A stretch of 64,000 nucleotides of DNA, taken from Escherichia coli. GTDB taxonomy: Bacteria; Pseudomonadota; Gammaproteobacteria; Enterobacterales; Enterobacteriaceae. The DNA is taken from assembly GCF_003018235.1 (NCBI RefSeq), contig NZ_CP027437.1, one strand, 5' to 3'. The notes under the pieces are model-generated. The model was not told where the DNA came from, did not search any database, and saw only the letters and a list, made by a program, of their open reading frames with translations. Made by a program: the position numbers and the translations under genes. Positions 33,330 through 45,281 of this stretch are shown here, one piece after another (within the stretch, counting starts at the first letter, position 1; each line of letters starts with the position of its first letter).

Positions 33330-34310
33330 ATGAACGCAATAATATCGCCCGATTATTACTATGTTCTTACCGTTGCTGGTCAGTCTAATGCCATGGCGTA
33401 TGGCGAAGGACTGCCATTACCGGACAGGGAAGATGCGCCTCATCCCAGAATTAAACAATTAGCGAGATTTGCGCATACGCATCCCGGAGGCCCGTCATGT
33501 CACTTTAACGACATTATTCCACTGACTCACTGCCCACACGATGTTCAGGATATGCAGGGTTATCACCATCCTCTGGCAACGAATCATCAAACACAGTACG
33601 GCACCGTTGGCCAGGCACTGCATATTGCACGGAAATTACTGCCCTTTATTCCTGATAACGCAGGGGTTCTCATCGTTCCGTGTTGCCGTGGCGGATCGGC
33701 TTTTACCGCGGGCAGCGAAGGGAAATATTCAGAACGGCACGGAGCCAGCCATGATGCTTGTCGTTGGGGAACGGATACTCCGCTATACCAGGATTTAGTC
33801 AGCAGAACGCGAGCCGCACTGGCAAAAAATCCGCAGAACAAATTCCTCGGCGTATGCTGGATGCAAGGCGAATTTGACTTAATGACCAGTGACTACGCGT
33901 CACACCCTCAACACTTTAATCATATGGTTGAAGCCTTTCGTAGGGAGCTAAAACAATACCATTCTCAGCTTAATAATATTACTGACGCACCGTGGTTTTG
34001 CGGCGATACCACCTGGTACTGGAAAGAAAATTTCCCTCATGCGTATGAAGCTATTTATGGCAATTATCAAAATAATGTTTTAGCCAATATTATTTTCGTC
34101 GACTTCCAGCAACAAGGTGCAAGAGGACTGACGAACGCGCCTGATGAAGATCCAGACGATTTAAGCACGGGATATTACGGTTCAGCGTACCGGTCACCGG
34201 AGAACTGGACGACGGCACTGCGAAGCAGTCATTTCAGCGCGGCAGCCCGTCGGGGGATTATTTCTGACAGGTTTGTAGAAGCAATTTTGCAGTTTTGGCG
34301 CGAAAGGTGA
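33330..34310 (+). CDS. nanS: 9-O-acetyl-N-acetylneuraminate esterase
   Basis: 326 aa from MNAIISPDYYYVLTVAGQSNAMAYG (SGNH-like GQSN motif). Confidence 0.8.
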   Translation: MNAIISPDYYYVLTVAGQSNAMAYGEGLPLPDREDAPHPRIKQLARFAHTHPGGPSCHFNDIIPLTHCPHDVQDMQGYHHPLATNHQTQYGTVGQALHIARKLLPFIPDNAGVLIVPCCRGGSAFTAGSEGKYSERHGASHDACRWGTDTPLYQDLVSRTRAALAKNPQNKFLGVCWMQGEFDLMTSDYASHPQHFNHMVEAFRRELKQYHSQLNNITDAPWFCGDTTWYWKENFPHAYEAIYGNYQNNVLANIIFVDFQQQGARGLTNAPDEDPDDLSTGYYGSAYRSPENWTTALRSSHFSAAARRGIISDRFVEAILQFWRER

Positions 34311-34317
34311 GCGTTCA

Positions 34318-34518
34318 TTAATTTGATTTATTTGCATCCATTAGCGCTTTTAACTGCTCCGGCGTAAACGGTGGTTTGCGTCGGTGCAACATCGCATGGC
34401 AATTAGGGCACACAGGAAGCAAATCATTAACTGGATCCAGCTGGTAATCCTCTTTAATGGCTGAAAGCGGCACCAGGTGATGCACATTAAGCAATTTCAG
34501 AACCGCATGCTCATACAT
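34318..34518 (-). pseudogene. HNH-motif remnant ORF (66 aa), probably the C-terminal fragment of a degraded gene
   Basis: CPNCHAMLH HNH-like motif. Short ORF directly downstream of the 202-aa ORF on the same strand. Confidence 0.4.
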
Positions 34519-34577
34519 ATTTCCCCCTAAGTTTGCTCACTGCCTTTAATTTATGTCACAGGCAATGTAATTCACCT

Positions 34578-34649
34578 GAAGCTCATCTTGAATCTGTCCT
34601 TCTACTTAGTCATTACCCTACTGGCACAACCGACCTCAAGATGAGCTTC
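34578..34649. repeat. Perfect 14-bp inverted repeat GAAGCTCATCTTGA / TCAAGATGAGCTTC separated by 44 bp
   Basis: Direct reading of the sequence. Lies between the 202-aa ORF stop and the HNH remnant. Confidence 0.7.
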
Positions 34650-34655
34650 TTACTT

Positions 34656-35264
34656 TTAACGATGTATCAGAACAATCTTGCGCCGGGAGAATAGCGTTTC
34701 CGCAGACAGCTGGAATTTATATTCCGCGGCCTTCAGCTTTCGCGATTTAAGCATTTTCATCGTGATACCCCTTATTTTCCCTGACTCAACCTGTCTCTTG
34801 ATTTCGCCGGTGCTCAGCATGAGCTGCTTTTGCAAAATCGACAGCAGGCTGACCTGAAACGAACGGGAAATCCTGACGCTAACCTTGACCCATTTGCCGG
34901 GAGAAAGGCTGGCTAACCACTGCTCCTGAATGCGAAAATCAGGCCGACCCGATAGCTCTGCGTTGTTCCGCTTCAGCATCGCGATATCACAGGAAAAATG
35001 TTGAACCGTGGCTGCATCGTTGCTCATCAGCCGGTTATGAAGTTCGCGGTCAATTTTGCTGACGTGCAGGCGCGAAAATAGGGAGATATTCCAGGTGTAA
35101 TCACAGTGTGTGCATTTATAGATACTCCACACGTCCAGCACCTTCTTTTGCGAATTAATCCGAAATGCACCTGATGGCGTGAAGTCCCGTTTAATGTTGC
35201 ATGAAGGGCATCGCTTCGCAATGCGCTGATACCCCACGGGCGTGACGGTCCATGTAACTTTCAT
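34656..35264 (-). CDS. Hypothetical Cys-rich (zinc-finger-like) protein
   Basis: 202-aa ORF with CPSCN...CTHCDYTW motifs. No confident family assignment. Confidence 0.45.
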   Translation of the reverse strand: MKVTWTVTPVGYQRIAKRCPSCNIKRDFTPSGAFRINSQKKVLDVWSIYKCTHCDYTWNISLFSRLHVSKIDRELHNRLMSNDAATVQHFSCDIAMLKRNNAELSGRPDFRIQEQWLASLSPGKWVKVSVRISRSFQVSLLSILQKQLMLSTGEIKRQVESGKIRGITMKMLKSRKLKAAEYKFQLSAETLFSRRKIVLIHR

Positions 35265-35559
35265 AACCTACCTTTTTTAACCCATACAAAACCGGATCCG
35301 TACTGAACGGACCATGGATGTTTATGTATGAAAAATATTTAAGAGATATTTTTCAGAGGGTTAAAAAAAGATTTCCAACTATGCAATCCTGTCGGTGAGC
35401 AAAGAGATATAGCGAGACTATCAAAACGGCAATTATTGGGTATATGAGTTCAATCAATATTCATGATGGTTATGGCTTGTTCTATTGATCTGACACATTA
35501 AACACGGCGCATTAATTTTGTATGTTTTATGAACAACCCAACAACAAAAGGAGCGCGAT

Positions 35560-35811
35560 ATGACACAGCACGAACGGTTTTGTCAGGCCTGCGGAATGCC
35601 GATGTCCGCACCTGATGCGCAGGGGAGTAGCGATAAATACTGTGCATACTGCAGCGATAGCAACGGCAATCTTAAACCCTGGGAAGAGGCGGTATCAGGC
35701 TTGGCCAGCTTCCTTGATTCCTGGCAAAAAGTCGGTCCAGAAGAAGCACAGAAGCGTGCAAAACGTTATCTGACGGCAATGCCTGCCTGGGCTCATAAAG
35801 CGGACGAGTGA
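35560..35811 (+). CDS. Small zinc-ribbon protein (hypothetical)
   Basis: 83-aa ORF with CQACGMP...CAYCSD (CxxC-N-CxxC). Confidence 0.45.
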   Translation: MTQHERFCQACGMPMSAPDAQGSSDKYCAYCSDSNGNLKPWEEAVSGLASFLDSWQKVGPEEAQKRAKRYLTAMPAWAHKADE

Positions 35812-35875
35812 ATAACAAAGTCAGGGTGATTTAGGCAGTCTATCTTCACTCCGCTGATTCCATTAAGGAGAGCCG

Positions 35876-36268
35876 ATGTTTTCTCACATTATGCTTGGAA
35901 CCAACAACCTGCCACGCGCCATTGCATTCTACGATCCGTTGATGGATATGCTGGGGTATCCCCGCGGCGGCAGGAAGAGGAGATCGCATGGTGGGGCGTT
36001 TTCAACGGTAATAACACTACGGCACTGGGTATCAGTAGGCCATTTGATAAACAGGTTGCCACGACCCGAAATGGAGTGATGGTCGCCCTGATTGCGCGTT
36101 CTGCCGAACACATCCAGCAAGTTTCATGTGCTAGCTTTAAATCACGGTGGCACTGACGAGGGAGCACCTGGCCAGCGTCCGCATTACGGCGAAGGGTTCT
36201 ACAGCGCTTACGTCAGAGACACCGATGGCAACAAGCTGGCTTACGTTTATTACACCGCACAATCCTGA
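35876..36268 (+). pseudogene. VOC/glyoxalase-family gene disrupted by frameshifts
   Basis: The N-terminal part MFSHIMLGTNNLPRAIAFYDPLMDMLGYPR is in one frame. The middle (EEEIAWWGVFNGNNTTALGISRPFDKQVATTRNGVMVALIARSAEHIQQV) and C-terminal (HVLALNHGGTDEGAPGQRPHYGEGFYSAYVRDTDGNKLAYVYYTAQS) parts are recovered only by shifting frame. Confidence 0.6.
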
Positions 36269-36512
36269 GAACGATAAAGCGGGGGCCTCAGCGCCCCCAC
36301 CTGAAACTAAACCGATCCCGCAGATGTCAATGAGCGTTGAACGAGTTGATAAATGCCGAGATGTCTGACTGTTTTTACGCCAGAACTCCATGGTGTGACA
36401 ACCATACACATACTCCCTTCTTGACACCTTTAAACCATTTAACCGCATGCCTCTGTCTGCCCTGCAGGGACGGCTGATGCCTGTGTGTTGTCTGGCGGTA
36501 AGGAACAATACT

Positions 36513-36674
36513 ATGTACGCAAAATCCTTTATCGCTCTCGACGGGAATGGTCGTCTGACCGGTGCCCGTACTGCGCAGACCGCCCCTTACGATCGTTATA
36601 CCTGCCACCTCTGCGGTAGCGTGCTGCAATACCATCCTGAATACATCACCGAACGCCCGTGCTTTGAACAGTAA
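36513..36674 (+). CDS. Small hypothetical protein (53 aa)
   Basis: ATG preceded by AGGA. Contains CHLCGS. No family recognised. Confidence 0.3.
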   Translation: MYAKSFIALDGNGRLTGARTAQTAPYDRYTCHLCGSVLQYHPEYITERPCFEQ

Positions 36675-37266
36675 CCAACACACTGACAGAGGGCGGCGAA
36701 AATGCTTTATGCAAATCTTGATGCAAAGGCAGCCAGACGAATTCGTAAGTTACGCTTTTACGTGGCAGATACTCAAAGCAGACTGGCATTGTAGCGACGA
36801 TTGCCACGGTGAACGCTATTGTATGGCATGTAGTACCTGAGACTTCAGCCGCCCAGTAGATATAGCATCATGAAAAAACTGAAATGCTTTCTTGCCAACA
36901 ACTCACTGAGCTAGTATGCCTCCACCGATGTAACAATTAGAGCAAGCGTCAAAGTGCGAAACTGCCCTCACGTAGCTGCAAGTTAACACCAGGAAATCCT
37001 GGTTCAAACACGACCAGCTCTATGTTAGCGGCAAGCAATCGTTGAACTAAACGCATATGCAGCCGGAGATGAAAGTTAGGAAAAAAGCAGAGGCTGATAA
37101 GAATTATGCACGTTGAGCTGGGATCGTAATACCCCACTTAAAATGTACAAGGGGAGTAGTCTAATGATGTTAAATACGAACCTTCAGTATTGTTCATTCA
37201 CCAATTTTCCCATATTCTCTCATCATTAATATTCTCTGCCGAATTTTATAGGGCTAACTCGCTGAA

Positions 37267-37473
37267 ATGAATGACAAAGCTTTAACCTTGAAAGATGTGG
37301 TGGCTTACTTAAAGTTGGCAGAAAAAACAGCGTATAGGTTGACTAGCGAAGGCAAATTGCCGGGATTTAAGGTTGAAGGCTCATGACGCTTCAAACGAGA
37401 GGATTTAGATATGTGGATTGAAGGTCAGAAGACTCAAAGCTACCCGAGTATCACAAAATCCAATCGTGGTTGA
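37267..37473 (+). pseudogene. AlpA/excisionase-type helix-turn-helix regulator gene interrupted by an in-frame TGA
   Basis: MNDKALTLKDVVAYLKLAEKTAYRLTSEGKLPGFKVEGS-stop-RFKREDLDMWIEGQ. The stop at 37384-37386 sits where this family has a conserved Trp (TGG). Confidence 0.6.
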
Positions 37474-37666
37474 TCAAGTGGATAAACATGAAAAGTCGGT
37501 AGCCCTCAAAGGCCACTTGCCACATGCAGTGAAGCAAGCCGTTGTGCAAGCTCTACTGAAAGAAGGTGATATCGCCCGAACGTTGCTCAAGGATCCACAA
37601 GTTATGGCAAGTTATGTTGAGCTGATTTTCGACATGATGAAGCAGAATAAAAATATGAATATCTAA
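37418..37666 (+). CDS. Hypothetical small ORF (TTG start), overlapping the HTH remnant out of frame
   Basis: 82-aa ORF from the track. Non-ATG start and no recognisable motifs. Confidence 0.25.
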   Translation: MKVRRLKATRVSQNPIVVDQVDKHEKSVALKGHLPHAVKQAVVQALLKEGDIARTLLKDPQVMASYVELIFDMMKQNKNMNI

Positions 37667-37708
37667 AAGATTTTGGGCTATCTATTACGTTTTAAAATGA
37701 GATAAATA

Positions 37709-40246
37709 ATGATAAATGACCATGAAGAACTAGAACTTGCTAAAGCTCAGGCAAAAGAAATATGGAAGATCCTTGATTATGTTCGAGGAGCATCACCTAT
37801 ATCTAATTATCGCTCATTAGCGTATTCAATCTTCTTCGTACGCTATCTTCAATCCAATACAGGTCAGCATTTTGAGGCAGAAAGGTTCGACTCTTTTAAT
37901 GTCATCGCCCAGTATTCCTACGATCTTGTAAACTATGCCGTTCAACTTGGATTGATTCATAGCGACGTATCTAAATTCTTAATTTATTATTTAGAAAACA
38001 CACTCCGTTCATTTGTCAATATTGATGAGTCTTTTGTTCGTTATGCAATTAGAGATGGTCTACTCAATAAAACCCCTGCAATAGCGTCGCTTTCTTTATC
38101 AGAACTGGATTTACTTTTTGCCGAGAATGAAGGTAAGTCAGGAGGTGAGTTTTATACCCCTAGAGACGTCAACTTATTGGTTAAAATATTAGGATTGAGT
38201 TATCAACCAAAGTCAATATGTGACCCATTTGCAGGTGCTGGAAACACAGCATTTCCTTTTGCCAATACTGGTATTGAAAAAGTTAGGATTGATACTCAAG
38301 AAATTAATAGAGATGCTTACTTTAAACTAGTAATAAGTAGAGTCATCAGGAAAATAGAAGGTCGAGACTATTTCGGCGATTCCCTATCACAACCATTATA
38401 TCAAGAAAATAAATATGATCTGATAGTTTCTTTCCCACCTTTTGGCATGAAAATTCCTAAAGCCACTCGAAATAATATTTACTATAAAACAAGTAATAAG
38501 TGGCTGGATATTACTGAAATCTTGCCAGAAAGTAGAAGTGATTGGTTTATAACATTATCAATGCTTCCAGCCCTTTCTGAGGGGGGTAAGATACTAGTAG
38601 GTATGTCACTTGGGGCTTTGACAAGAGCAGGCTCTGAGGCAAAGGTTCGTGAGTATTTAGTCTCTCGCGGAATTATCGAACAAGTAATTCTTTTACCTAA
38701 AAATATTTATTACTCTACGGCTATCTCAACTGTACTTCTTGTCCTCAACTCAGGAACAAGTAACATAAATAACAGAAGTATTAAATTTGTAGATGCTTCA
38801 CTGTTTTACGAGCCTGCCCGTGGTCGAAACACCCTCACAACAAAAAATATAAATGAGATCGTAGAGGCTTGTCATAAAGATGGCCGATTTAGTATTAGTT
38901 CATCTCATACCCAAATAGCAAACAGAGACTTTAATTTAGATCCGTCTCTTTATGTACGTAAAGATCTCAAAATCAGTGAGGTTTCTTTAAAAAATTTTAG
39001 AGGATACTCTGACTTTAAAGTTTCGATACATCCTTCTTTAAATGTATTGGTTGGTGAGAACGGCGTCGGGAAAACTTCGATATTAGAAGCATTAGCATGT
39101 GGCCTTGGTCCTTTCCTTACTGCTATGCCTGATGCTAAAGGAAAACTGATAAAAAAATCAGATATCCATATAAGTTCAAAAGGAATCGCAAATTATGCTC
39201 GAATATCGATTGAAACAACATCAAGTTTAAGTTGGGATCTTGTGGCAAAGGGGGTTGATGTTTCCGAGCCCCCTAAGATAGGAACATCAGCATTAACTAG
39301 CTACGCTACTCATCTTGTAGATAGTCAGTCTGAATATCCACTCATTGCTTATTATGGGACTAACCGTGCTCTTACTTCTACCAGTTCTAAAGTTGCAATA
39401 AATCCATTCGAGAAAGAAAATCGTGGGGAAGGTTATGACTTTGCTTTAGATGCTAAAGTTAACTACGGCATCTTAAAGAACTGGTTTTCAAAAATAGAGG
39501 TTGATGAGCTTCGAAAACGTGATGAACTAAAAGACCATAAATTCATTCATCCGGCTAAGAGACTTGTTTCAGAGGCTGTTTACCAGATTGTTGATCGAGC
39601 TACATGCTTGGAGTTCGACAAAAATAGTAACGATGTTATGGTTCATTGGAAAAATGAGCAGGGAGAGTGCGTAAAGCTTACATTGGAACAACTAAGTGAA
39701 GGGTATAGAAATATGGTATCCCTGACCATTGACCTAGTGAGGCGTGCTTATTTACTTAATCCTACCAAACCGAAACCGCTAACAGTTAATGGGATCGTTT
39801 TAATTGATGAAATTGAACTTCACTTGCACCCTAGATGGCAGCAAAAGATTTTAAATGATCTTACTAAGCTGTTTAAGAATATTCAGTTTATTGTCACGAC
39901 ACATAGTCCTCAAGTCTTAACAACAATCAAAGCCGATTGTATCCGTATTGTTTCCGTCAATGCTAACGAAGCAAAATTAGTGACAGGAACTACTACTTAC
40001 GGTTCTGAAAGCTCAAGAATGTTGGAAGATGTTTTAGGTGGTAACAATCGCGCCCAACATCTTGATATTGTTAAAAAACTAAACCGTTATACAGAGTTAG
40101 TAGAGGCCGACAAATGGGATACCGATGAGGCATTAGAACTCAAAAAAGAGTTATATAAATGGGGTGGTCAGACAGAAGACGAGCTTCAAAAATTAGAAAC
40201 TGATATTCGAATTCGCGAGTTCGAGCGTGGCAATGAAAAAGATTAA
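37709..40246 (+). CDS. Fusion protein: N-terminal HsdM-like N6-adenine DNA methyltransferase domain plus C-terminal ABC/AAA_21-type ATPase domain (PtuA-like)
   Basis: 845-aa ORF. Methyltransferase motifs GGEFYTPRDV, ICDPFAGAGNTAF (motif I) and DLIVSFPPFG (motif IV region). ATPase motifs: Walker A VLVGENGVGKTS, signature-like LSEGYRNMVSL, Walker B VLIDEIELHLHP, H-loop FIVTTHSP. Confidence 0.75.
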   Translation: MINDHEELELAKAQAKEIWKILDYVRGASPISNYRSLAYSIFFVRYLQSNTGQHFEAERFDSFNVIAQYSYDLVNYAVQLGLIHSDVSKFLIYYLENTLRSFVNIDESFVRYAIRDGLLNKTPAIASLSLSELDLLFAENEGKSGGEFYTPRDVNLLVKILGLSYQPKSICDPFAGAGNTAFPFANTGIEKVRIDTQEINRDAYFKLVISRVIRKIEGRDYFGDSLSQPLYQENKYDLIVSFPPFGMKIPKATRNNIYYKTSNKWLDITEILPESRSDWFITLSMLPALSEGGKILVGMSLGALTRAGSEAKVREYLVSRGIIEQVILLPKNIYYSTAISTVLLVLNSGTSNINNRSIKFVDASLFYEPARGRNTLTTKNINEIVEACHKDGRFSISSSHTQIANRDFNLDPSLYVRKDLKISEVSLKNFRGYSDFKVSIHPSLNVLVGENGVGKTSILEALACGLGPFLTAMPDAKGKLIKKSDIHISSKGIANYARISIETTSSLSWDLVAKGVDVSEPPKIGTSALTSYATHLVDSQSEYPLIAYYGTNRALTSTSSKVAINPFEKENRGEGYDFALDAKVNYGILKNWFSKIEVDELRKRDELKDHKFIHPAKRLVSEAVYQIVDRATCLEFDKNSNDVMVHWKNEQGECVKLTLEQLSEGYRNMVSLTIDLVRRAYLLNPTKPKPLTVNGIVLIDEIELHLHPRWQQKILNDLTKLFKNIQFIVTTHSPQVLTTIKADCIRIVSVNANEAKLVTGTTTYGSESSRMLEDVLGGNNRAQHLDIVKKLNRYTELVEADKWDTDEALELKKELYKWGGQTEDELQKLETDIRIREFERGNEKD

Positions 40247-41021
40247 TAAGCTAGATGAGCCAAATCGGCTTGGTGTGTTCAAGGCTACTCATCCTAATGC
40301 TTTGTGGGAGAGGGATAAAAACTCAATTGAAGAGGCTTTCCGTTGTTGCATTGCCAGATATCAAGAAACTCTACAACAATTACGTACGGACCAAGGTAAT
40401 TTATGTGCATATTGTGAACAGGATTTAATGTCTGGAACTAATGGGGCATTAGATGACTGCCGTATTGAGCATTTTCATCCGAAATCTAAACGTGAACAGG
40501 GAGAACCTAATTGGGCTTTGGAATGGAGCAATTTGTTAGTTGTTTGCTGTGGCGGAAATCAAAGTAAAGTTGTTAATCCTGGGCAAAGATTTGATGCTGA
40601 TCCCAAAAATTACTCTTGCGATGTACCAAAGAGTGACAAAATTTTAGATACCATTATATTAAATCCACTTAATTTACCTGAATTAAATATCTGGAAGTTT
40701 CATCGTTCTTCGGGGCAAATTTCCGTAAATGAAGATTCCTGTTTAGAATTTGGTATAAGTGTTGAAATGGCACACCAAACAATTAAAGAATTGAATTTAA
40801 ATTCCCCTCGATTAATTAGATTTCGAAAGGCTATTCTAAATAATCTCAACATTTTAATAACAGAAAGGCTGAAGAAGGGACAAACGGTAGAGCAAGCTGT
40901 TAGATTTATTGCCATATCACTCTTTAGAAAAAATGGAGCAGGTGATTGGCCCTCTTTTTTTAGTGCAACACGATATTATTTAGGTCAGCAGGCTGAGCTT
41001 GTTTTAGCCCAACCTATTTAA
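40233..41021 (+). CDS. HNH endonuclease (PtuB/TIGR02646-like), translationally coupled to the upstream fusion gene
   Basis: 262 aa from MKKINKLDEP. HNH motifs CAYCE, CRIEHFHPKS, NLLVVCCGGN. Its start overlaps the 3' end of the upstream gene by 14 nt. Confidence 0.7.
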   Translation: MKKINKLDEPNRLGVFKATHPNALWERDKNSIEEAFRCCIARYQETLQQLRTDQGNLCAYCEQDLMSGTNGALDDCRIEHFHPKSKREQGEPNWALEWSNLLVVCCGGNQSKVVNPGQRFDADPKNYSCDVPKSDKILDTIILNPLNLPELNIWKFHRSSGQISVNEDSCLEFGISVEMAHQTIKELNLNSPRLIRFRKAILNNLNILITERLKKGQTVEQAVRFIAISLFRKNGAGDWPSFFSATRYYLGQQAELVLAQPI

Positions 41022-41040
41022 CATACTTTCAACTAGTTAG

Positions 41041-41063
41041 AGAGGCTGCTTTTGGCAGCCTCT
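41041..41063. terminator. Hairpin between convergent genes (AGAGGCTGC-TTTTG-GCAGCCTCT), likely bidirectional terminator
   Basis: Perfect 9-bp stem with a 5-nt loop in the 60-bp gap between the 3' ends of the convergent genes. Confidence 0.55.
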
Positions 41064-41081
41064 TGCAGAGTGCAGAATCGA

Positions 41082-42515
41082 CTACAGGGGCGATGCTAGC
41101 TCAGAGAACCAAGCGTGAACTGATCTGTAAAATGTGCTGATTGACCAAAACTCACTGCATGCAGCAACTAACAGAATGACCACTAAGAGGATCACTACAG
41201 TAGAAGTCATTCTTTCCACACGGCAGTATGATCCCATCGCATCTTTTACAGGTTGTCTAGCCAGTTCCTGATAATCCAGCTCATCCAGAAATCCGTATAA
41301 TTTAGTTCTCCAGGTGGTTCTAACTCTTTCAAGTAATGAAATTGTTTGCCTATTAATATAGACAGACATTCCATAGGAAATAACTATATAAACCGCGATA
41401 GCACAAAAAACCAAAGCGTAAATATTTTGCAAACCAACTGATTTTACTGCATCCAGACTGTAGCGAATAACCAAGACACTAATTACAAGAGCCATATCTT
41501 TCCATAAGGAAGAGGACAAATCTCGGGATTGCTGAATGATCTTTTGTGTATCTTCAGCCAGCGTTTTCCGCAAATCACCCAAGGATTTCATAGTATCTTT
41601 ACCACCAGTCCTGATATGGGCCTTATACATTAACCGTGCAGACTCCAAAGCTGATGAGAGTCGAAGCATCACTCCCTCACAAAAGTTCAGGTCTGAAGGC
41701 CACTCTCTAGCCAGCTCGCTGGACAAAAACGTATGTTTCAGCTCAGTTTCATTCCCCTCTAGAAAAATCCACTTTGCCGCTTCCTGGATAATATCAAAAG
41801 CAGGTAACGCTGCCGTCTCATCGCCGAATGCTATTTTTCTGGGAGGCTTTCCCGCAAGCCCCACCATCATTTCGTCAGCAAAAAAAAGTTCATTTGCAAA
41901 ACATTTCAGCAACTCTCGGCATCCTAGCAATTTCCATATCTTGATTGCTTCATCAGTCTTCTCACTACAAGTTTCAAGTATCCAAGGGGCAATGGCATCT
42001 GGAGGAAGAAAAGTTGTTGAATAACATTTGATGATACTTTTTGTTACTGAAGGCTTAGTGATAGCTGTTGCATCACCAGCACTCACCGGCTGTATCTCCT
42101 TCCATGGATGCACATACCAACTTATTGTCTGAAAGCCTTCAGTAATAAACAGCCCATAAATATGTTTGTACCGACAGAGTTTGCTATCTTGAAGTAAAAA
42201 AGTGCGCCATCCTTCTAAGGTAAAAAGCCTCAGTATCCCCGGAATTTCATTATAAGTGATGGTAATGTAGTGCTTCTGCCCTGGGACCCCCTCTCTCGGA
42301 TGAATAACATCTCTGCTCTCATCGATAAAAACGATCTTGAGATCTTCCGCATGTACATCCACTATTTCTCCCCATAAATCAAGGGATTCACTATCCATTG
42401 TGGCGGAAATAAAAAGCTTATGGATAGACACCTGCTGGTCCTCTGTGATCACAAGGTCAGATAAATGTCGTGAGTGGCATATAGCCTTACCGATTTTTTC
42501 CAATATCGATATCAT
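41082..42515 (-). CDS. Hypothetical protein with two C-terminal transmembrane helices (membrane-anchored), second gene of a two-gene cassette
   Basis: 477-aa ORF. Hydrophobic stretches LVISVLVIRYSL...IYALVFCAIAVYIVISYGMSVYI and TSTVVILLVVILLVAACSEFW. No recognisable catalytic motif. Confidence 0.5.
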   Translation of the reverse strand: MISILEKIGKAICHSRHLSDLVITEDQQVSIHKLFISATMDSESLDLWGEIVDVHAEDLKIVFIDESRDVIHPREGVPGQKHYITITYNEIPGILRLFTLEGWRTFLLQDSKLCRYKHIYGLFITEGFQTISWYVHPWKEIQPVSAGDATAITKPSVTKSIIKCYSTTFLPPDAIAPWILETCSEKTDEAIKIWKLLGCRELLKCFANELFFADEMMVGLAGKPPRKIAFGDETAALPAFDIIQEAAKWIFLEGNETELKHTFLSSELAREWPSDLNFCEGVMLRLSSALESARLMYKAHIRTGGKDTMKSLGDLRKTLAEDTQKIIQQSRDLSSSLWKDMALVISVLVIRYSLDAVKSVGLQNIYALVFCAIAVYIVISYGMSVYINRQTISLLERVRTTWRTKLYGFLDELDYQELARQPVKDAMGSYCRVERMTSTVVILLVVILLVAACSEFWSISTFYRSVHAWFSELASPL

Positions 42516-43548
42516 CTGTTACCAATCCTGCAGTCACAATTACAATTCGTTTTCGCCCGTCTTCCATATTTTCTACTTCTGGTGCATTGTCTTCATCGTA
42601 GATAATGATTACATCTTCCAATGTTTCCAGTTTTCTCTTCCGGGGCTTCTGAATGTTATCGGGAATGATGCGGAAAGATTCACCTGAAATTCCTAAATCC
42701 TTTATTTTACGAAAAAAATACTTAACCAGAGGGTGTTCTTCCTCCAAAGGACCAAAAATCTGGGTCAACAATGGCAGTGCTTCATCAGTATTAAAATCCT
42801 GTTCGCCATGGCGTAAAGTTTCATAAATTTTGTTTACTCCGCTGCGCTTGATCTCTTCAGGTAGTAAGTTTCGATGCTTTTTATATACATCTTTTAATAC
42901 AGTAACTAGCTTATCGCTGAGCTGAGTTGGGTCATTGACGCGCTTAACCTGTAGAAATCGTTCAAAATAGACAGAGATGTTAGTACGTTTGCTGCGATCT
43001 CGTACGACAACTAATCCGCCCGGCAAATCTTCATTCAGCCGTACCAGTGCGATTTTCTGCATGGCTTCGGCTTTTTTAACGAAACTTTCGCGAAAGCGTT
43101 CGAGTTTAGGTACCTGAAACTCATCTCCTTCAACATCCAGCACATAACGGACTACATCTTCATTGTCATACTTAATCAACGCATACAGTTTCTCATCGTT
43201 GAGTGTATGAAGTTCAAAAAGGAAAAAAACGCCCATACTGGCATTCTTGGTATGGTGGTGAGACTGAAAATCGCTTGCCAATAAGGAGGATTGCTCAGTA
43301 AAGCAGCCGATATCGGTGTCTGCATGTTCCCTGATGATCCTCAGGATTCGCTCTGTATTTGACAACTCCTTAAAATGAAACATATTGCCACTAACTGCAG
43401 ATTTGATACGTTCCAGAAAGAAATCAACATGCTCCGGAGGGGAAATTTCGCTGAGTAAAACAGGGACTTCCAACTCACCGCCAACCACATGAAAAATCAT
43501 CCTTTTTATTGATAATGCATTGATTTCTTCATCCGTTAAAAAACTCAT
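42487..43548 (-). CDS. Hypothetical cytoplasmic protein (353 aa), first gene of the two-gene cassette; weak NdpA/YejK-like resemblance at most
   Basis: ATG start confirmed. Overlaps the downstream ORF by 29 nt. Acidic C-terminus. No confident domain assignment. Confidence 0.5.
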   Translation of the reverse strand: MSFLTDEEINALSIKRMIFHVVGGELEVPVLLSEISPPEHVDFFLERIKSAVSGNMFHFKELSNTERILRIIREHADTDIGCFTEQSSLLASDFQSHHHTKNASMGVFFLFELHTLNDEKLYALIKYDNEDVVRYVLDVEGDEFQVPKLERFRESFVKKAEAMQKIALVRLNEDLPGGLVVVRDRSKRTNISVYFERFLQVKRVNDPTQLSDKLVTVLKDVYKKHRNLLPEEIKRSGVNKIYETLRHGEQDFNTDEALPLLTQIFGPLEEEHPLVKYFFRKIKDLGISGESFRIIPDNIQKPRKRKLETLEDVIIIYDEDNAPEVENMEDGRKRIVIVTAGLVTDDIDIGKNR

Positions 43549-43744: not shown

Positions 43745-44998
43745 TTACATTATTAGGGCAAAATCAAACGGACTCACCCCCTTCTCCCGATTCGCATCCA
43801 GATAATTTGCCCACCACTGCAGCATCAACCTACGCTCCCCAAGATGTTCCGCCTTATGGATGTATGCCGCCCGCACAGAGCTACGCTCCTGATGGCTCAT
43901 CTGCCGCTCCACTGCATTCCTCGACCACAATCCTGATTCAATAAGTGAACTACAGGCCATCGTCCTGAAACCATGCCCACAGACTTCCGTTTTGGTGTCA
44001 TAGCCCATAACTCGCAAAGCCTTGTTCACCGTATTCTCACTCATCGGCTTATGCGGATCGTGATCGCCCACAAAAATCAGCTCTCGATTTCCATTCATGC
44101 TTTTGATCTTTTCCAAAATAGCTAAGGCCTGCCGCGATAAGGGTACAAGATGGGGAGTTCGCATCTTCGAACCACGCTGAGAATGTTTAACACCGTCCAA
44201 CGGTTCACGCTCACCGGGGATCGTCCACATGGCCGTTTCAAAATCCACTTCTGACCAACGGGCAAAGCGCAGTTCGCTTGAACGGATGAAAACTAACAAA
44301 GTGAGTTCGACAGCCAGTCGAGTTAACGGCCTGCCGGAGTAATGATCAATGCGGTGAAGTAATTCAGGTATGCGGTTAAGCTCCAGAGCCGCACGATGCT
44401 GTCTTTTAGCAGTAGCAACCGCACCGGTAATCTCTTGCGCGGGGTTGTAGTCGATTAAGCCGCTCTGAACGGCAAAGCGCATAATCGCGGTAGTTCGCTG
44501 CTGTAAACGGGCGGCGACTTCAAGACGTCCGGATGACTCCACCGCTTTAATGGGTACAAGAAGATCCCGAGTCTTAAGCTCTGCAATGTTCCGCTTACCG
44601 ATAGCAGCAAAGAGATTATCTTCTAGGCTTTTCAATACACGAGCACTATGCGATGCAGACCACTTCTGATTACTGGCATGCCAGTCTCTGACGACCACTT
44701 CAAACGTTATCGCCTCTTGCTCCTGTTCTACCTTAACCGCTTTCTTGTTTTCACTGGGATCGACGCCGTTCGCTAAAAGCTTACGCGCTTCGTCTCGCCG
44801 CGATCGAGCATCAGCTAACGAAACTTCAGGATACTTCCCTAGCGCCAGCATCTTCTCTTTACCACCGAAACGATAACGAAGCCGCCAGTATTTGGAGCCG
44901 TTAGGGTGAACCAGCAAAACCATGCCTTCACCATCAGTAAGTTTATAGGCTTTTGCTTCAGGCTTTGCCGAACGAACCTTCACATCACTCAGAGCCAT
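43745..44998 (-). CDS. int: P4-family tyrosine integrase
   Basis: 417 aa from MALSDVKVRSAKPEAKAYKLTDGEGMVLLVHPNGSKYWRLRYRFGGKEKMLALGKYP (P4-type integrase N-terminus). Catalytic region HGFRTMA...Y. Lies directly beside the tRNA-Leu 3' end. Confidence 0.9.
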   Translation of the reverse strand: MALSDVKVRSAKPEAKAYKLTDGEGMVLLVHPNGSKYWRLRYRFGGKEKMLALGKYPEVSLADARSRRDEARKLLANGVDPSENKKAVKVEQEQEAITFEVVVRDWHASNQKWSASHSARVLKSLEDNLFAAIGKRNIAELKTRDLLVPIKAVESSGRLEVAARLQQRTTAIMRFAVQSGLIDYNPAQEITGAVATAKRQHRAALELNRIPELLHRIDHYSGRPLTRLAVELTLLVFIRSSELRFARWSEVDFETAMWTIPGEREPLDGVKHSQRGSKMRTPHLVPLSRQALAILEKIKSMNGNRELIFVGDHDPHKPMSENTVNKALRVMGYDTKTEVCGHGFRTMACSSLIESGLWSRNAVERQMSHQERSSVRAAYIHKAEHLGERRLMLQWWANYLDANREKGVSPFDFALIM

Positions 44999-45196
44999 GA
45001 TGAATATCCTTTCAAGGGTTCTGTGTGGGTACAAACATTATCGAACCGGGATATACCCGCAGTTGTACCCGCATCAGTAAGTTGATGTAGATTGAATCAG
45101 GTTGACTTAGGTTGAGTGAAAAAGCGAGGAAAGCCTTGCGGATACTGGATTTCAGGCATAAAAAAAGACCTCAGTTGAGGTCTATTTACATACTTA

Positions 45197-45281
45197 TGGT
45201 GCCGAAGGCCGGACTCGAACCGGCACGTATTTCTACGGTTGATTTTGAATCAACTGCGTCTACCGATTTCGCCACTTCGGC
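45197..45281 (-). tRNA. leuX: tRNA-Leu (anticodon CAA)
   Basis: The minus-strand sequence reads GCCGAAGTGGCGAAATCGGTAGACGCAGTTGATTCAAAATCAACCGTAGAAATACGTGCCGGTTCGAGTCCGGCCTTCGGCACCA (85 nt), with a CAA anticodon loop and a CCA end. Confidence 0.9.

Follow-up and report, generated by a model that had tools for sequence, protein, structure and literature searches.

A conserved HsdM-like pseudo-methyltransferase fused to the Septu ATPase PtuA is a predicted sensor module often linked to type I restriction-modification operons

Introduction

Why should a gene annotated as a DNA methylase carry a degenerate catalytic motif and, in the same reading frame, the ATPase of a defence system? The question is raised by a gene of Escherichia coli at 37709..40246 (+ strand) of a 64,000-nt stretch of contig NZ_CP027437.1 (assembly GCF_003018235.1), here called the window. 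Its product of 845 amino acids (aa) is named 'N-6 DNA methylase' in RefSeq, while the open reading frame (ORF) and its Pfam and PADLOC matches describe a fusion of an HsdM-like pseudo-methyltransferase with a PtuA ABC ATPase. An initial annotation of the window had noticed the unusual motif IV of the methyltransferase domain and had proposed either that the domain is impaired and now serves as a sensor of DNA or of its modification for an ATPase-HNH effector, or that it uses a shifted motif. As judged from sequence, the locus is a Septu (PtuAB) system in which PtuA bears an extra 419-aa HsdM-like N-terminal module, and we consider it very probable that this module acts as a non-catalytic sensor or regulatory domain of a Septu variant. 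The most informative facts lie outside the motif that first drew attention (38426-38446), namely in the Septu identity of the locus and in its linkage to type I restriction-modification (R-M) systems, both of which the initial annotation had missed, and in convergent fusions elsewhere.

Results

Phenylalanine occupies the catalytic position of motif IV

Reading the codons of the + strand from 38417 to 38446 (gat ctg ata gtt tct ttc cca cct ttt ggc) gives D237-L-I-V-S241-F242-P-P-F245-G246, in which V240-G246 (VSFPPFG) corresponds to 38426-38446. The degenerate motif IV, S-F-P-P-F at aa 241-245, lies at 38429..38443 (+), with the F242 codon (38432-38434) in the place of the catalytic Asn. This codon reading confirmed the Phe directly before PP and the Ser one position earlier, as well as the Ser241/Phe242 numbering, that had been reported initially.

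The comparison with characterised HsdM proteins that had been suggested as a check was then made. By phmmer against the chain sequences of the PDB, 'FDAIVSNPPYSVK' of EcoR124 HsdM pairs gap-free with 'YDLIVSFPPFGMK' of the fusion protein, and three further solved HsdMs are likewise gap-free at motif IV, so that Phe242, and not Ser241, stands on the catalytic Asn. In a MAFFT alignment the F242 column is Asn in 60/60 canonical HsdMs, while the column before it contains Ser in 27 of them and Ala in 25. Because the alignments are ungapped and Ser or Ala is normal before Asn in Asn-bearing HsdMs, a shifted motif with Ser241 as the catalytic residue is ruled out, and with it the second of the two initial alternatives; to judge from the alignments, Ser241 is an ordinary beta-strand residue of the kind that coexists with Asn. 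A sequencing error or a one-off variant is excluded as well, since the change from Asn to Phe takes two base changes and FPPF is present in nearly all of the ~68 clusters of related proteins described below.

The domain is conserved as a predicted pseudo-methyltransferase

A word-indexed search recovered ~68 clusters that share the architecture of the fusion, with identities of 42-100%; Gammaproteobacteria supply most of them and Undibacterium a few. When 1.84 billion representatives were searched exhaustively with HMMER, the N-terminal domain stood out as a compact clade, made up of four 50%-identity clusters with scores of >=265 bits and well apart from ordinary HsdMs at <=128 bits. Most members have SFPPF at motif IV and others have SLPPF, SIPPL, SFPPI, SFPPM or SCPPF; SNPPF is kept by one divergent member only (P0067, metagenomic, 44% identity). 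Among 22 sampled members, the Asn position is occupied by F (15), L (4), I (1), C (1) and N (1), and four have I, M or L in place of the aromatic that follows PP. In active enzymes the motif IV aromatic stacks on the flipped base and the hydrogen-bonding Asn contacts the target amino group.

The elements surrounding this site are largely preserved. The HsdM-type Rossmann methyltransferase-fold domain, predicted to be non-catalytic, spans aa 137-418 (38117..38962, +) according to Pfam (N6_Mtase, 7e-42), phmmer and Foldseek. Motif I, the S-adenosylmethionine (AdoMet)-binding glycine loop, reads DPFAGAG at aa 172-178 (38222..38242, +), with D-P-x-x-G-x-G invariant. Q197-E198 (38297..38302, +), also invariant in the family, forms motif II with the acidic residue that ends strand 2, which, from what is generally known of class I methyltransferases, we take to be the ribose contact. 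GGEFYTP at aa 145-151 (38141..38161, +), identified in the family alignment, combines an 'xGEF' pocket motif with FxTP (motif X), and its F148, T150 and P151 are invariant across the fusion family; in PacII the AGEF/AAEF motif is part of the catalytic pocket (PMC9613975). Motifs X, I and II are all present in the fusion protein, and binding of AdoMet is predicted. With respect to canonical HsdMs, the family keeps GGEF-Y-T-P (X), D-P-x-x-G-x-G (I), Q-E (II), G-D/N-S-L, the PP dipeptide, R306, E310, R314 and L-P at 329-330. Changes are found at positions that are 90-98% conserved in HsdMs, with W replaced by I/V/L at 249, H by S at 284, N by S/T/A at 210 and F by H/Y at 334; in addition, D and R are variable at 262 and 264 and F is replaced by I/V at 281.

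We estimated the ratio of nonsynonymous to synonymous substitutions (dN/dS) by the Nei-Gojobori method for each part of the protein. The methylase-like domain gave 0.086 against the Klebsiella homologue and 0.093 against that of Pantoea, indistinguishable from the ATPase (0.076 and 0.096, respectively). The least constrained part is the N-terminal helical region, with 0.30 against Klebsiella and 0.14 against Pantoea. A decaying pseudo-domain can be ruled out, given a dN/dS of ~0.09 and the lack of frameshifts over the ~68 clusters.

The loss of Asn, the invariance of the AdoMet motifs and a dN/dS equal to that of the ATPase together argue for a pseudo-methyltransferase maintained by selection. 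The domain is, as far as its residues tell, a conserved pseudo-methyltransferase with an apparently intact cofactor pocket but without the catalytic Asn. The (N/D)PP(F/Y/W) motif IV of active N6-adenine methyltransferases is missing from it, and so is the C-terminal region with which an active HsdM assembles on HsdS; we infer that methylase activity has been lost.

Degenerate motif IV sequences also occur outside the fusion family. A stand-alone HsdM-like protein of 455 aa with SFPPFGM (P0171; metagenomic loci L014 1320-3932 and L015 174-3145) has a half-size HsdS on one side of its gene and a canonical type I methylase gene on the other, which suggests that type I operons also harbour unfused 'dead' HsdM paralogues. 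Among the 146 nearest HsdM-like representatives at 50% identity (P0085-P0230), about two dozen have neither Asn nor Asp before PP (H, T, V, C, A, Q, S or I instead), and several of these carry a fused HsdS-like region. The annotation of 'type I methylases' may understate how often their motif IV is non-canonical. When ten more HsdM-like proteins whose motif IV lacks Asn were scanned with PADLOC, only generic type I methylase or HsdS architectures came up.

The fusion protein and its HNH partner form a Septu system

From aa 421 on, Pfam matches the fusion protein to AAA_23, SMC_N, AAA_15 and AAA_21, and PADLOC assigns PtuA over aa 420-843 (4.7e-106). The PtuA ABC-type ATPase (aa 420-845, 426 aa; 38966..40243, +), also recovered by Foldseek, is intact in its Walker A (GENGVGKT, 39053-39076), ABC signature (LSEGY, 39692-39706), Walker B (IVLIDE, 39794-39811) and H-loop (TTHSP, 39896-39910) on the + strand, and the residues of these four motifs are invariant in the fusion-family alignment. 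Directly downstream, in the same orientation and overlapping the 3' end of the fusion gene by 14 nt, ptuB (40233..41021, +) encodes an HNH nuclease of 262 aa from the ATG at 40233 (PADLOC PtuB, 1.9e-100). This protein belongs to NCBIfam TIGR02646 (83.6 bits against a cutoff of 52) and is named 'retron system putative HNH endonuclease' in RefSeq. PtuB was downstream of the fusion in all homologous loci that we examined.

An AlphaFold2 model of the fusion protein has a mean predicted local distance difference test score of 77.6, with the methylase-like domain mostly at 80-93. Searched with Foldseek, it matches the PtuA of retrons Ec83, Ec78 and Eco7 and of E. coli Septu (8eea, 8ee4) at E values of ~1e-21 to 1e-25, together with the HsdM structures 3lkd and PacII 7vs4. 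The region ahead of the methylase-like domain (aa 1-136; 37709..38116, +) is all-helical in the model and is the equivalent of the HsdM N-terminal domain by a weak alignment with HsdM N-termini. No linker separates the two domains, since HsdM homology runs to aa 417-418 and PtuA is matched from aa 420. In EcoKI and EcoR124I, the C-terminal helices of HsdM grip HsdS; this HsdS-binding tail is absent from the fusion protein.

The name given to PtuB raises the possibility of a retron. No reverse transcriptase was found among the ORFs and annotations upstream or downstream of ptuAB, which argues against a type I-A retron or a retron-type Septu. The NCBIfam retron models give 329 bits for PtuA against a cutoff of 500 and 127 bits for PtuB against a cutoff of 150.

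Fusion loci are enriched next to type I restriction-modification operons

In Klebsiella, Photobacterium, Undibacterium, Shewanella, Moritella and Pseudoalteromonas, the fusion gene and ptuB lie directly downstream of a complete hsdM-hsdS-hsdR operon; the hsdR stop often abuts the start of the fusion gene and in several genera abuts or overlaps it. In Plesiomonas the fusion is convergent to a complete type I R-M operon. Overall, an adjacent complete type I R-M system was found in 7/12 fusion lineages against 2/77 plain PtuA loci (Fisher p = 3.7e-6), where HsdR was detected by tblastn with four queries, a crude procedure that divergent enzymes may escape and that may undercount systems next to plain PtuA. 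The plain PtuA background was collected by scanning contigs for ATPase peptide patterns, which also yielded three new fusion loci.

The partner systems belong to at least four unrelated R-M families. Adjacent HsdR proteins can be ~80% identical between genera while the fusion proteins beside them are only ~45% identical; from this difference and from the variety of partners, the module appears to evolve fast and not to be tailored to one enzyme. With an identity of just 25-26% to the HsdM encoded next to it, the fused domain is not a recent duplicate of that gene product.

Type I methylase parts are joined to defence ATPases in other families

Two further kinds of fusion were recovered. A full HsdS with two target recognition domains is fused to PtuA in P0069 (L003 8001-11293, Photobacterium carnosum) and in four further clusters (P0350-P0353), from Photobacterium, Vibrio and Pseudoalteromonas. 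At L003, the one locus of this kind examined, the gene order is hsdS'-hsdM-[HsdS::PtuA]-ptuB-hsdR-YgjP-like, which places the fusion within the type I operon.

The other kind, seen in P0090 and in five more clusters (P0231-P0235), joins an HsdM-like domain to HEC-01A, an AriA/PARIS-like ATPase. At the metagenomic loci L016 (752-3639) and L017, the PADLOC match to HEC-01A (5e-118) is followed by a DUF4276/HEC-01B protein, and this combination is an ABC ATPase and TOPRIM pair of the AriA/AriB (PARIS-like) kind. The methylase domain here is nearer to true HsdMs, at 45-50% identity. Asn is nevertheless replaced in 5/6 clusters, four of them with IPPF or LPPF and P0234 with a further degenerate motif, while the most divergent member keeps NPPF. 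The glycine loop is also altered, from GxG to GxA, with GTA for GSG in motif I.

Taken with the stand-alone FPPF HsdM-like protein, these two kinds of fusion indicate that type I methylase parts have been joined to defence ABC ATPases repeatedly and that, by comparison of their sequences, the loss of the catalytic Asn is convergent. This convergence in two independent HsdM::ABC-ATPase fusions suggests selection against catalysis, or no need for it.

In E. coli the system is a rare mobile cassette in the leuX island

The cassette genes are located in the leuX tRNA island, bounded by a P4-type tyrosine integrase (43745-45034, - strand) and by the tRNA-Leu(CAA) gene leuX (45197-45281, - strand). 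A blastn comparison of the window with loci L005 and L006 delimits a mobile two-gene cassette of 3.65 kb at 37441..41087 (+) that is shared with Klebsiella (95.5% nucleotide identity), with a GC content of 36-39% against ~50% in the flanks and with no hsdS. It is present in only 2/5426 complete E. coli genomes; in Klebsiella a 96%-identical protein is common. A promoter and terminator scan around the cassette gave matches at chance level only.

Just upstream of the fusion gene, an 82-aa ORF (37418-37666, +) has a weak PADLOC match to PDC-S15 (4e-6) and from 37441 on is homologous to the C-terminal half of a 146-aa ORF that Klebsiella has between hsdR and the fusion (L006 9518-9958). It has the appearance of a truncated remnant and would mark where the transferred cassette has its left edge. 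Further upstream, ~34300-37400 is a patchwork of gene fragments (truncated HNH, DUF1062, zinc ribbon, a VOC-family fragment and a short helix-turn-helix), in which 35958-36630 (673 bp) differs from strain CFSAN018748, where ISEc31 (IS3-family) occupies the corresponding site.

Between ptuB and the leuX integrase there is an overlapping two-gene cassette (41082-42515 and 42487-43548, both on the - strand). One of its products, of 477 aa, has no Pfam, PADLOC or NCBIfam match, and the other, of 353 aa, is a homologue of the nucleoid-associated protein NA37 (Pfam, 1.5e-12). Klebsiella has other genes in this place. Given that it lies in a defence island, the pair is a candidate for an accessory or defence function.

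An EcoAI-family type I R-M system (hsdR-M-S; L098, NZ_CP028192.1 4755981-4763472) is present in a near-identical E. coli strain, where GmrSD/DUF262-HNH type IV-like genes flank it and the PtuAB cassette is ~51 kb away. Given this system, a type I enzyme would be available in trans.

Discussion

The known systems nearest to this one offer a framework for its function. With Septu and the PtuAB of type I-A retrons (Ec78/Eco7, Ec83), the locus shares a PtuA ATPase with intact motifs and a downstream TIGR02646/PtuB HNH protein. In retron-type PtuAB, the retron is an add-on that sequesters and regulates the PtuAB effector pair (PMC12819146), and the fusion resembles it in having an extra module grafted onto PtuAB, presumably a sensor or regulator. 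It differs in that this module is a fused 419-aa HsdM-like pseudo-methyltransferase, with no reverse transcriptase found nearby, and it differs from plain PtuA loci in being often, instead of seldom, linked to type I R-M. In comparison with canonical HsdMs (EcoR124I, EcoKI, PacII M1/M2), the fused domain has the fold and keeps motifs X, I, II, PP, V and VI; it is only 25-34% identical to them, with Phe for Asn, other invariant positions altered and no C-terminal HsdS-binding region.

Three systems couple an effector to type I R-M or to its inhibition. In Ronin, HsdS and HsdM without HsdR sequester a small toxin, and this HsdMS complex is a decoy for Ocr, ArdA and Aop1 that responds even with motif IV mutated (bioRxiv 10.1101/2023.04.06.535777). 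Ronin (Silas et al.) and the fusion thus both link type I methylase parts, free of HsdR, to a toxic effector (RonA in the former), and Ronin is likewise an E. coli island system, often found in genomes without a complete type I R-M. Ronin differs in using separate canonical HsdM (NPPF) and HsdS proteins with a 61-aa membrane toxin, whereas here a single Asn-less HsdM-like domain without HsdS is mounted on an ABC ATPase that partners an HNH nuclease; sequence kinship between the two is established at the general HsdM-family level only. PrrC/EcoprrI/Stp and PARIS have been described as guardian systems of R-M: PrrC is embedded in EcoprrI and released by T4 Stp, and PARIS is an AriA/AriB pair triggered by the T7 protein Ocr (PMC12707154). 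PARIS keeps a nuclease on an ABC ATPase scaffold until an anti-restriction protein is present; the fusion likewise combines an ATPase with a nuclease, and a related AriA-like ATPase (HEC-01A) is itself fused to an Asn-less HsdM-like domain. The PARIS effector is, however, a TOPRIM/DUF4276 protein and not an HNH nuclease, AriA senses Ocr without a methylase-like domain, and the ATPase of the fusion is of the PtuA family, not AriA. PrrC resembles the fusion as an ABC-ATPase-type protein in, or appended to, an hsd operon (type IC) that acts as a backup when restriction is inhibited. Unlike the fusion, it has its own (anticodon) nuclease domain, has no HsdM-like domain and needs physical association with EcoprrI, while the fusion module can also stand alone as an autonomous cassette. 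Linkage to type I R-M or mimicry of it, a feature of guardian and decoy systems, is found here in the HsdM-derived domain, in the operon adjacency and in the related fusions.

These likenesses bear on what the domain might sense. The initial proposal of an impaired methyltransferase repurposed as a sensor for an ATPase-HNH effector stands in outline and is well supported by the family-wide loss of Asn (to F/L/I/C), by the disappearance of the aromatic after PP in some members, and by changes at other HsdM-invariant positions in spite of strong purifying selection. The part that named DNA or its modification as the sensed object fared less well, as the genomic context and the nearest known systems favour phage anti-restriction factors, or else the status of a type I R-M enzyme, as what is sensed.

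We propose a mechanism in which the pseudo-HsdM would be an infection-sensing module added to PtuA and would act as a bait for anti-restriction factors; we regard it as plausible but hold it tentatively, by analogy with the systems above. Having lost the catalytic Asn and lacking the C-terminal helices that bind HsdS, the HsdM-derived domain would no longer perform sequence-specific adenine methylation. PtuA oligomers would show pairs of HsdM-like domains, which would imitate the clamp with which a type I methylase binds DNA. This bait would be bound by an anti-restriction factor that the phage directs against type I enzymes (DNA mimics like Ocr and ArdA, or similar proteins), and the resulting conformational change of the PtuA assembly would license PtuB to cleave nucleic acid of the host or the phage (tRNA or DNA, as for other PtuAB), aborting the infection. 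Behind hsdMSR, the module would serve as a backup of that R-M system, while in E. coli it would be an autonomous decoy cassette. The display geometry, the trigger and the nuclease target are the parts of this scheme that we infer.

Several points weigh against it. The choice of an anti-restriction protein as the trigger is drawn purely by analogy. Ocr and ArdA act as DNA mimics that attach to M2S complexes of type I enzymes (PMC9613975); their target is the assembled M2S1 clamp, HsdS included, whereas the fusion is without HsdS. Five of the 12 lineages (E. coli, Pantoea, Serratia, Aeromonas and the metagenomic NPPF member) have no adjacent R-M, and where there is one, the fused domain, at 25-26% identity to the neighbouring HsdM, is no close mimic of it. 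Finally, strict conservation of the AdoMet motifs would be needless for a pure protein bait, which hints that ligand or DNA binding matters.

If DNA binding is what matters, the dead domain might bind DNA, perhaps flipping or probing adenines, and recognise unmodified, hypermodified or foreign DNA so as to direct or license PtuAB, in a restriction-like system with PtuAB in place of HsdR. The HsdM fold and the 'GEF' and PP-F pocket elements kept in most members are consistent with such a sensor, which is what the initial annotation had proposed; PtuAB complexes are moreover nucleases acting on DNA or tRNA (PMC12819146), and a dimeric display on PtuA could make a DNA clamp. We nevertheless find this unlikely, as the fusion has no HsdS or other specificity element and orphan loci such as that of E. 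coli have no partner methylase, which leaves the sparing of self DNA unexplained. The hydrogen-bonding Asn is gone and the base-stacking aromatic has become I, M or L in some members, and the convergent AriA-like fusion favours a PARIS-type (protein) trigger. An enzyme that still methylates DNA or another substrate through a non-canonical motif IV, for self-protection or to give PtuAB a modification signal, is very improbable, in spite of intact AdoMet-binding motifs, purifying selection on the domain and the NPPF retained by one family member, P0067. The position is invariably Asn in the canonical relatives, its variation among F, L, I and C is unlike that of a catalytic residue, there is neither a shift to Ser nor a specificity subunit, and Asn has been lost convergently in a second fusion family.

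Ligand binding would instead be decisive if the domain held AdoMet without turnover and its depletion by a phage S-adenosylmethionine (SAM) lyase (T3 type) switched PtuAB on. FxTP, DPxxGxG, QE and G-D/N-S-L are invariant down to 42% identity although the catalytic residue is lost, and a 2025 review expects sensing of cofactor depletion, as yet without an identified example (PMC12707154). Still, the same conservation may reflect fold stability alone, AdoMet binding is a prediction, and the degenerate glycine loop (GxG to GxA) of the HsdM-like::AriA-like fusion indicates that ligand binding is no shared requirement; we think this explanation distinctly doubtful. The R-M linkage, for its part, could reflect a guard acting in cis, in which the HsdM-like domain docks PtuAB into the resident type I complex, taking the position of HsdM or contacting HsdR, and PtuB stays silent until R-M is inhibited, like PrrC with EcoprrI. 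The close spacing between hsdR and the fusion in several genera, the HsdS::PtuA fusions that necessarily assemble with HsdM, the precedent of PrrC itself and the EcoAI-family system 51 kb away in the near-identical strain all fit such an adaptor. We consider it improbable, since the helices by which HsdM binds HsdS are absent, since association with at least four unrelated type I families, or with no adjacent R-M at all, speaks against a specific fit, and since the fusion diverges much faster than the HsdR next to it.

Bait for an anti-restriction factor remains our preferred reading for the trigger. A wider formulation, in which a dead AdoMet-binding methylase domain hard-wired to an ABC ATPase detects either DNA-mimic proteins or the depletion of AdoMet by SAM lyases, is possible, and we put it forward with some doubt. 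If this wider formulation is true, the same solution would have arisen independently at least two times, once on PtuA and once on AriA-like ATPases, with HsdS providing a third instance, and decoy domains taken from R-M enzymes would be a general design principle of ABC-ATPase defence.

We found no description of a methylase::PtuA fusion in a literature search, and an earlier mention in the ABC ATPase classification of Krishnan et al. 2020 is possible. Defence-system finders would call the locus Septu; what is new is the pseudo-HsdM sensor module and its linkage to R-M. The 'N-6 DNA methylase' annotation of such proteins is probably wrong and would mislead methylome and R-M surveys. The family would be a clean natural case of a pseudo-enzyme kept as a sensor, and it would bring a new effector family under the guardian and decoy logic known from PrrC, PARIS and Ronin. 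For stand-alone Septu, infection sensing here appears to be encoded in the domain architecture, where it is directly testable, and, should the proposed mechanism hold, Septu would gain its first defined sensor.

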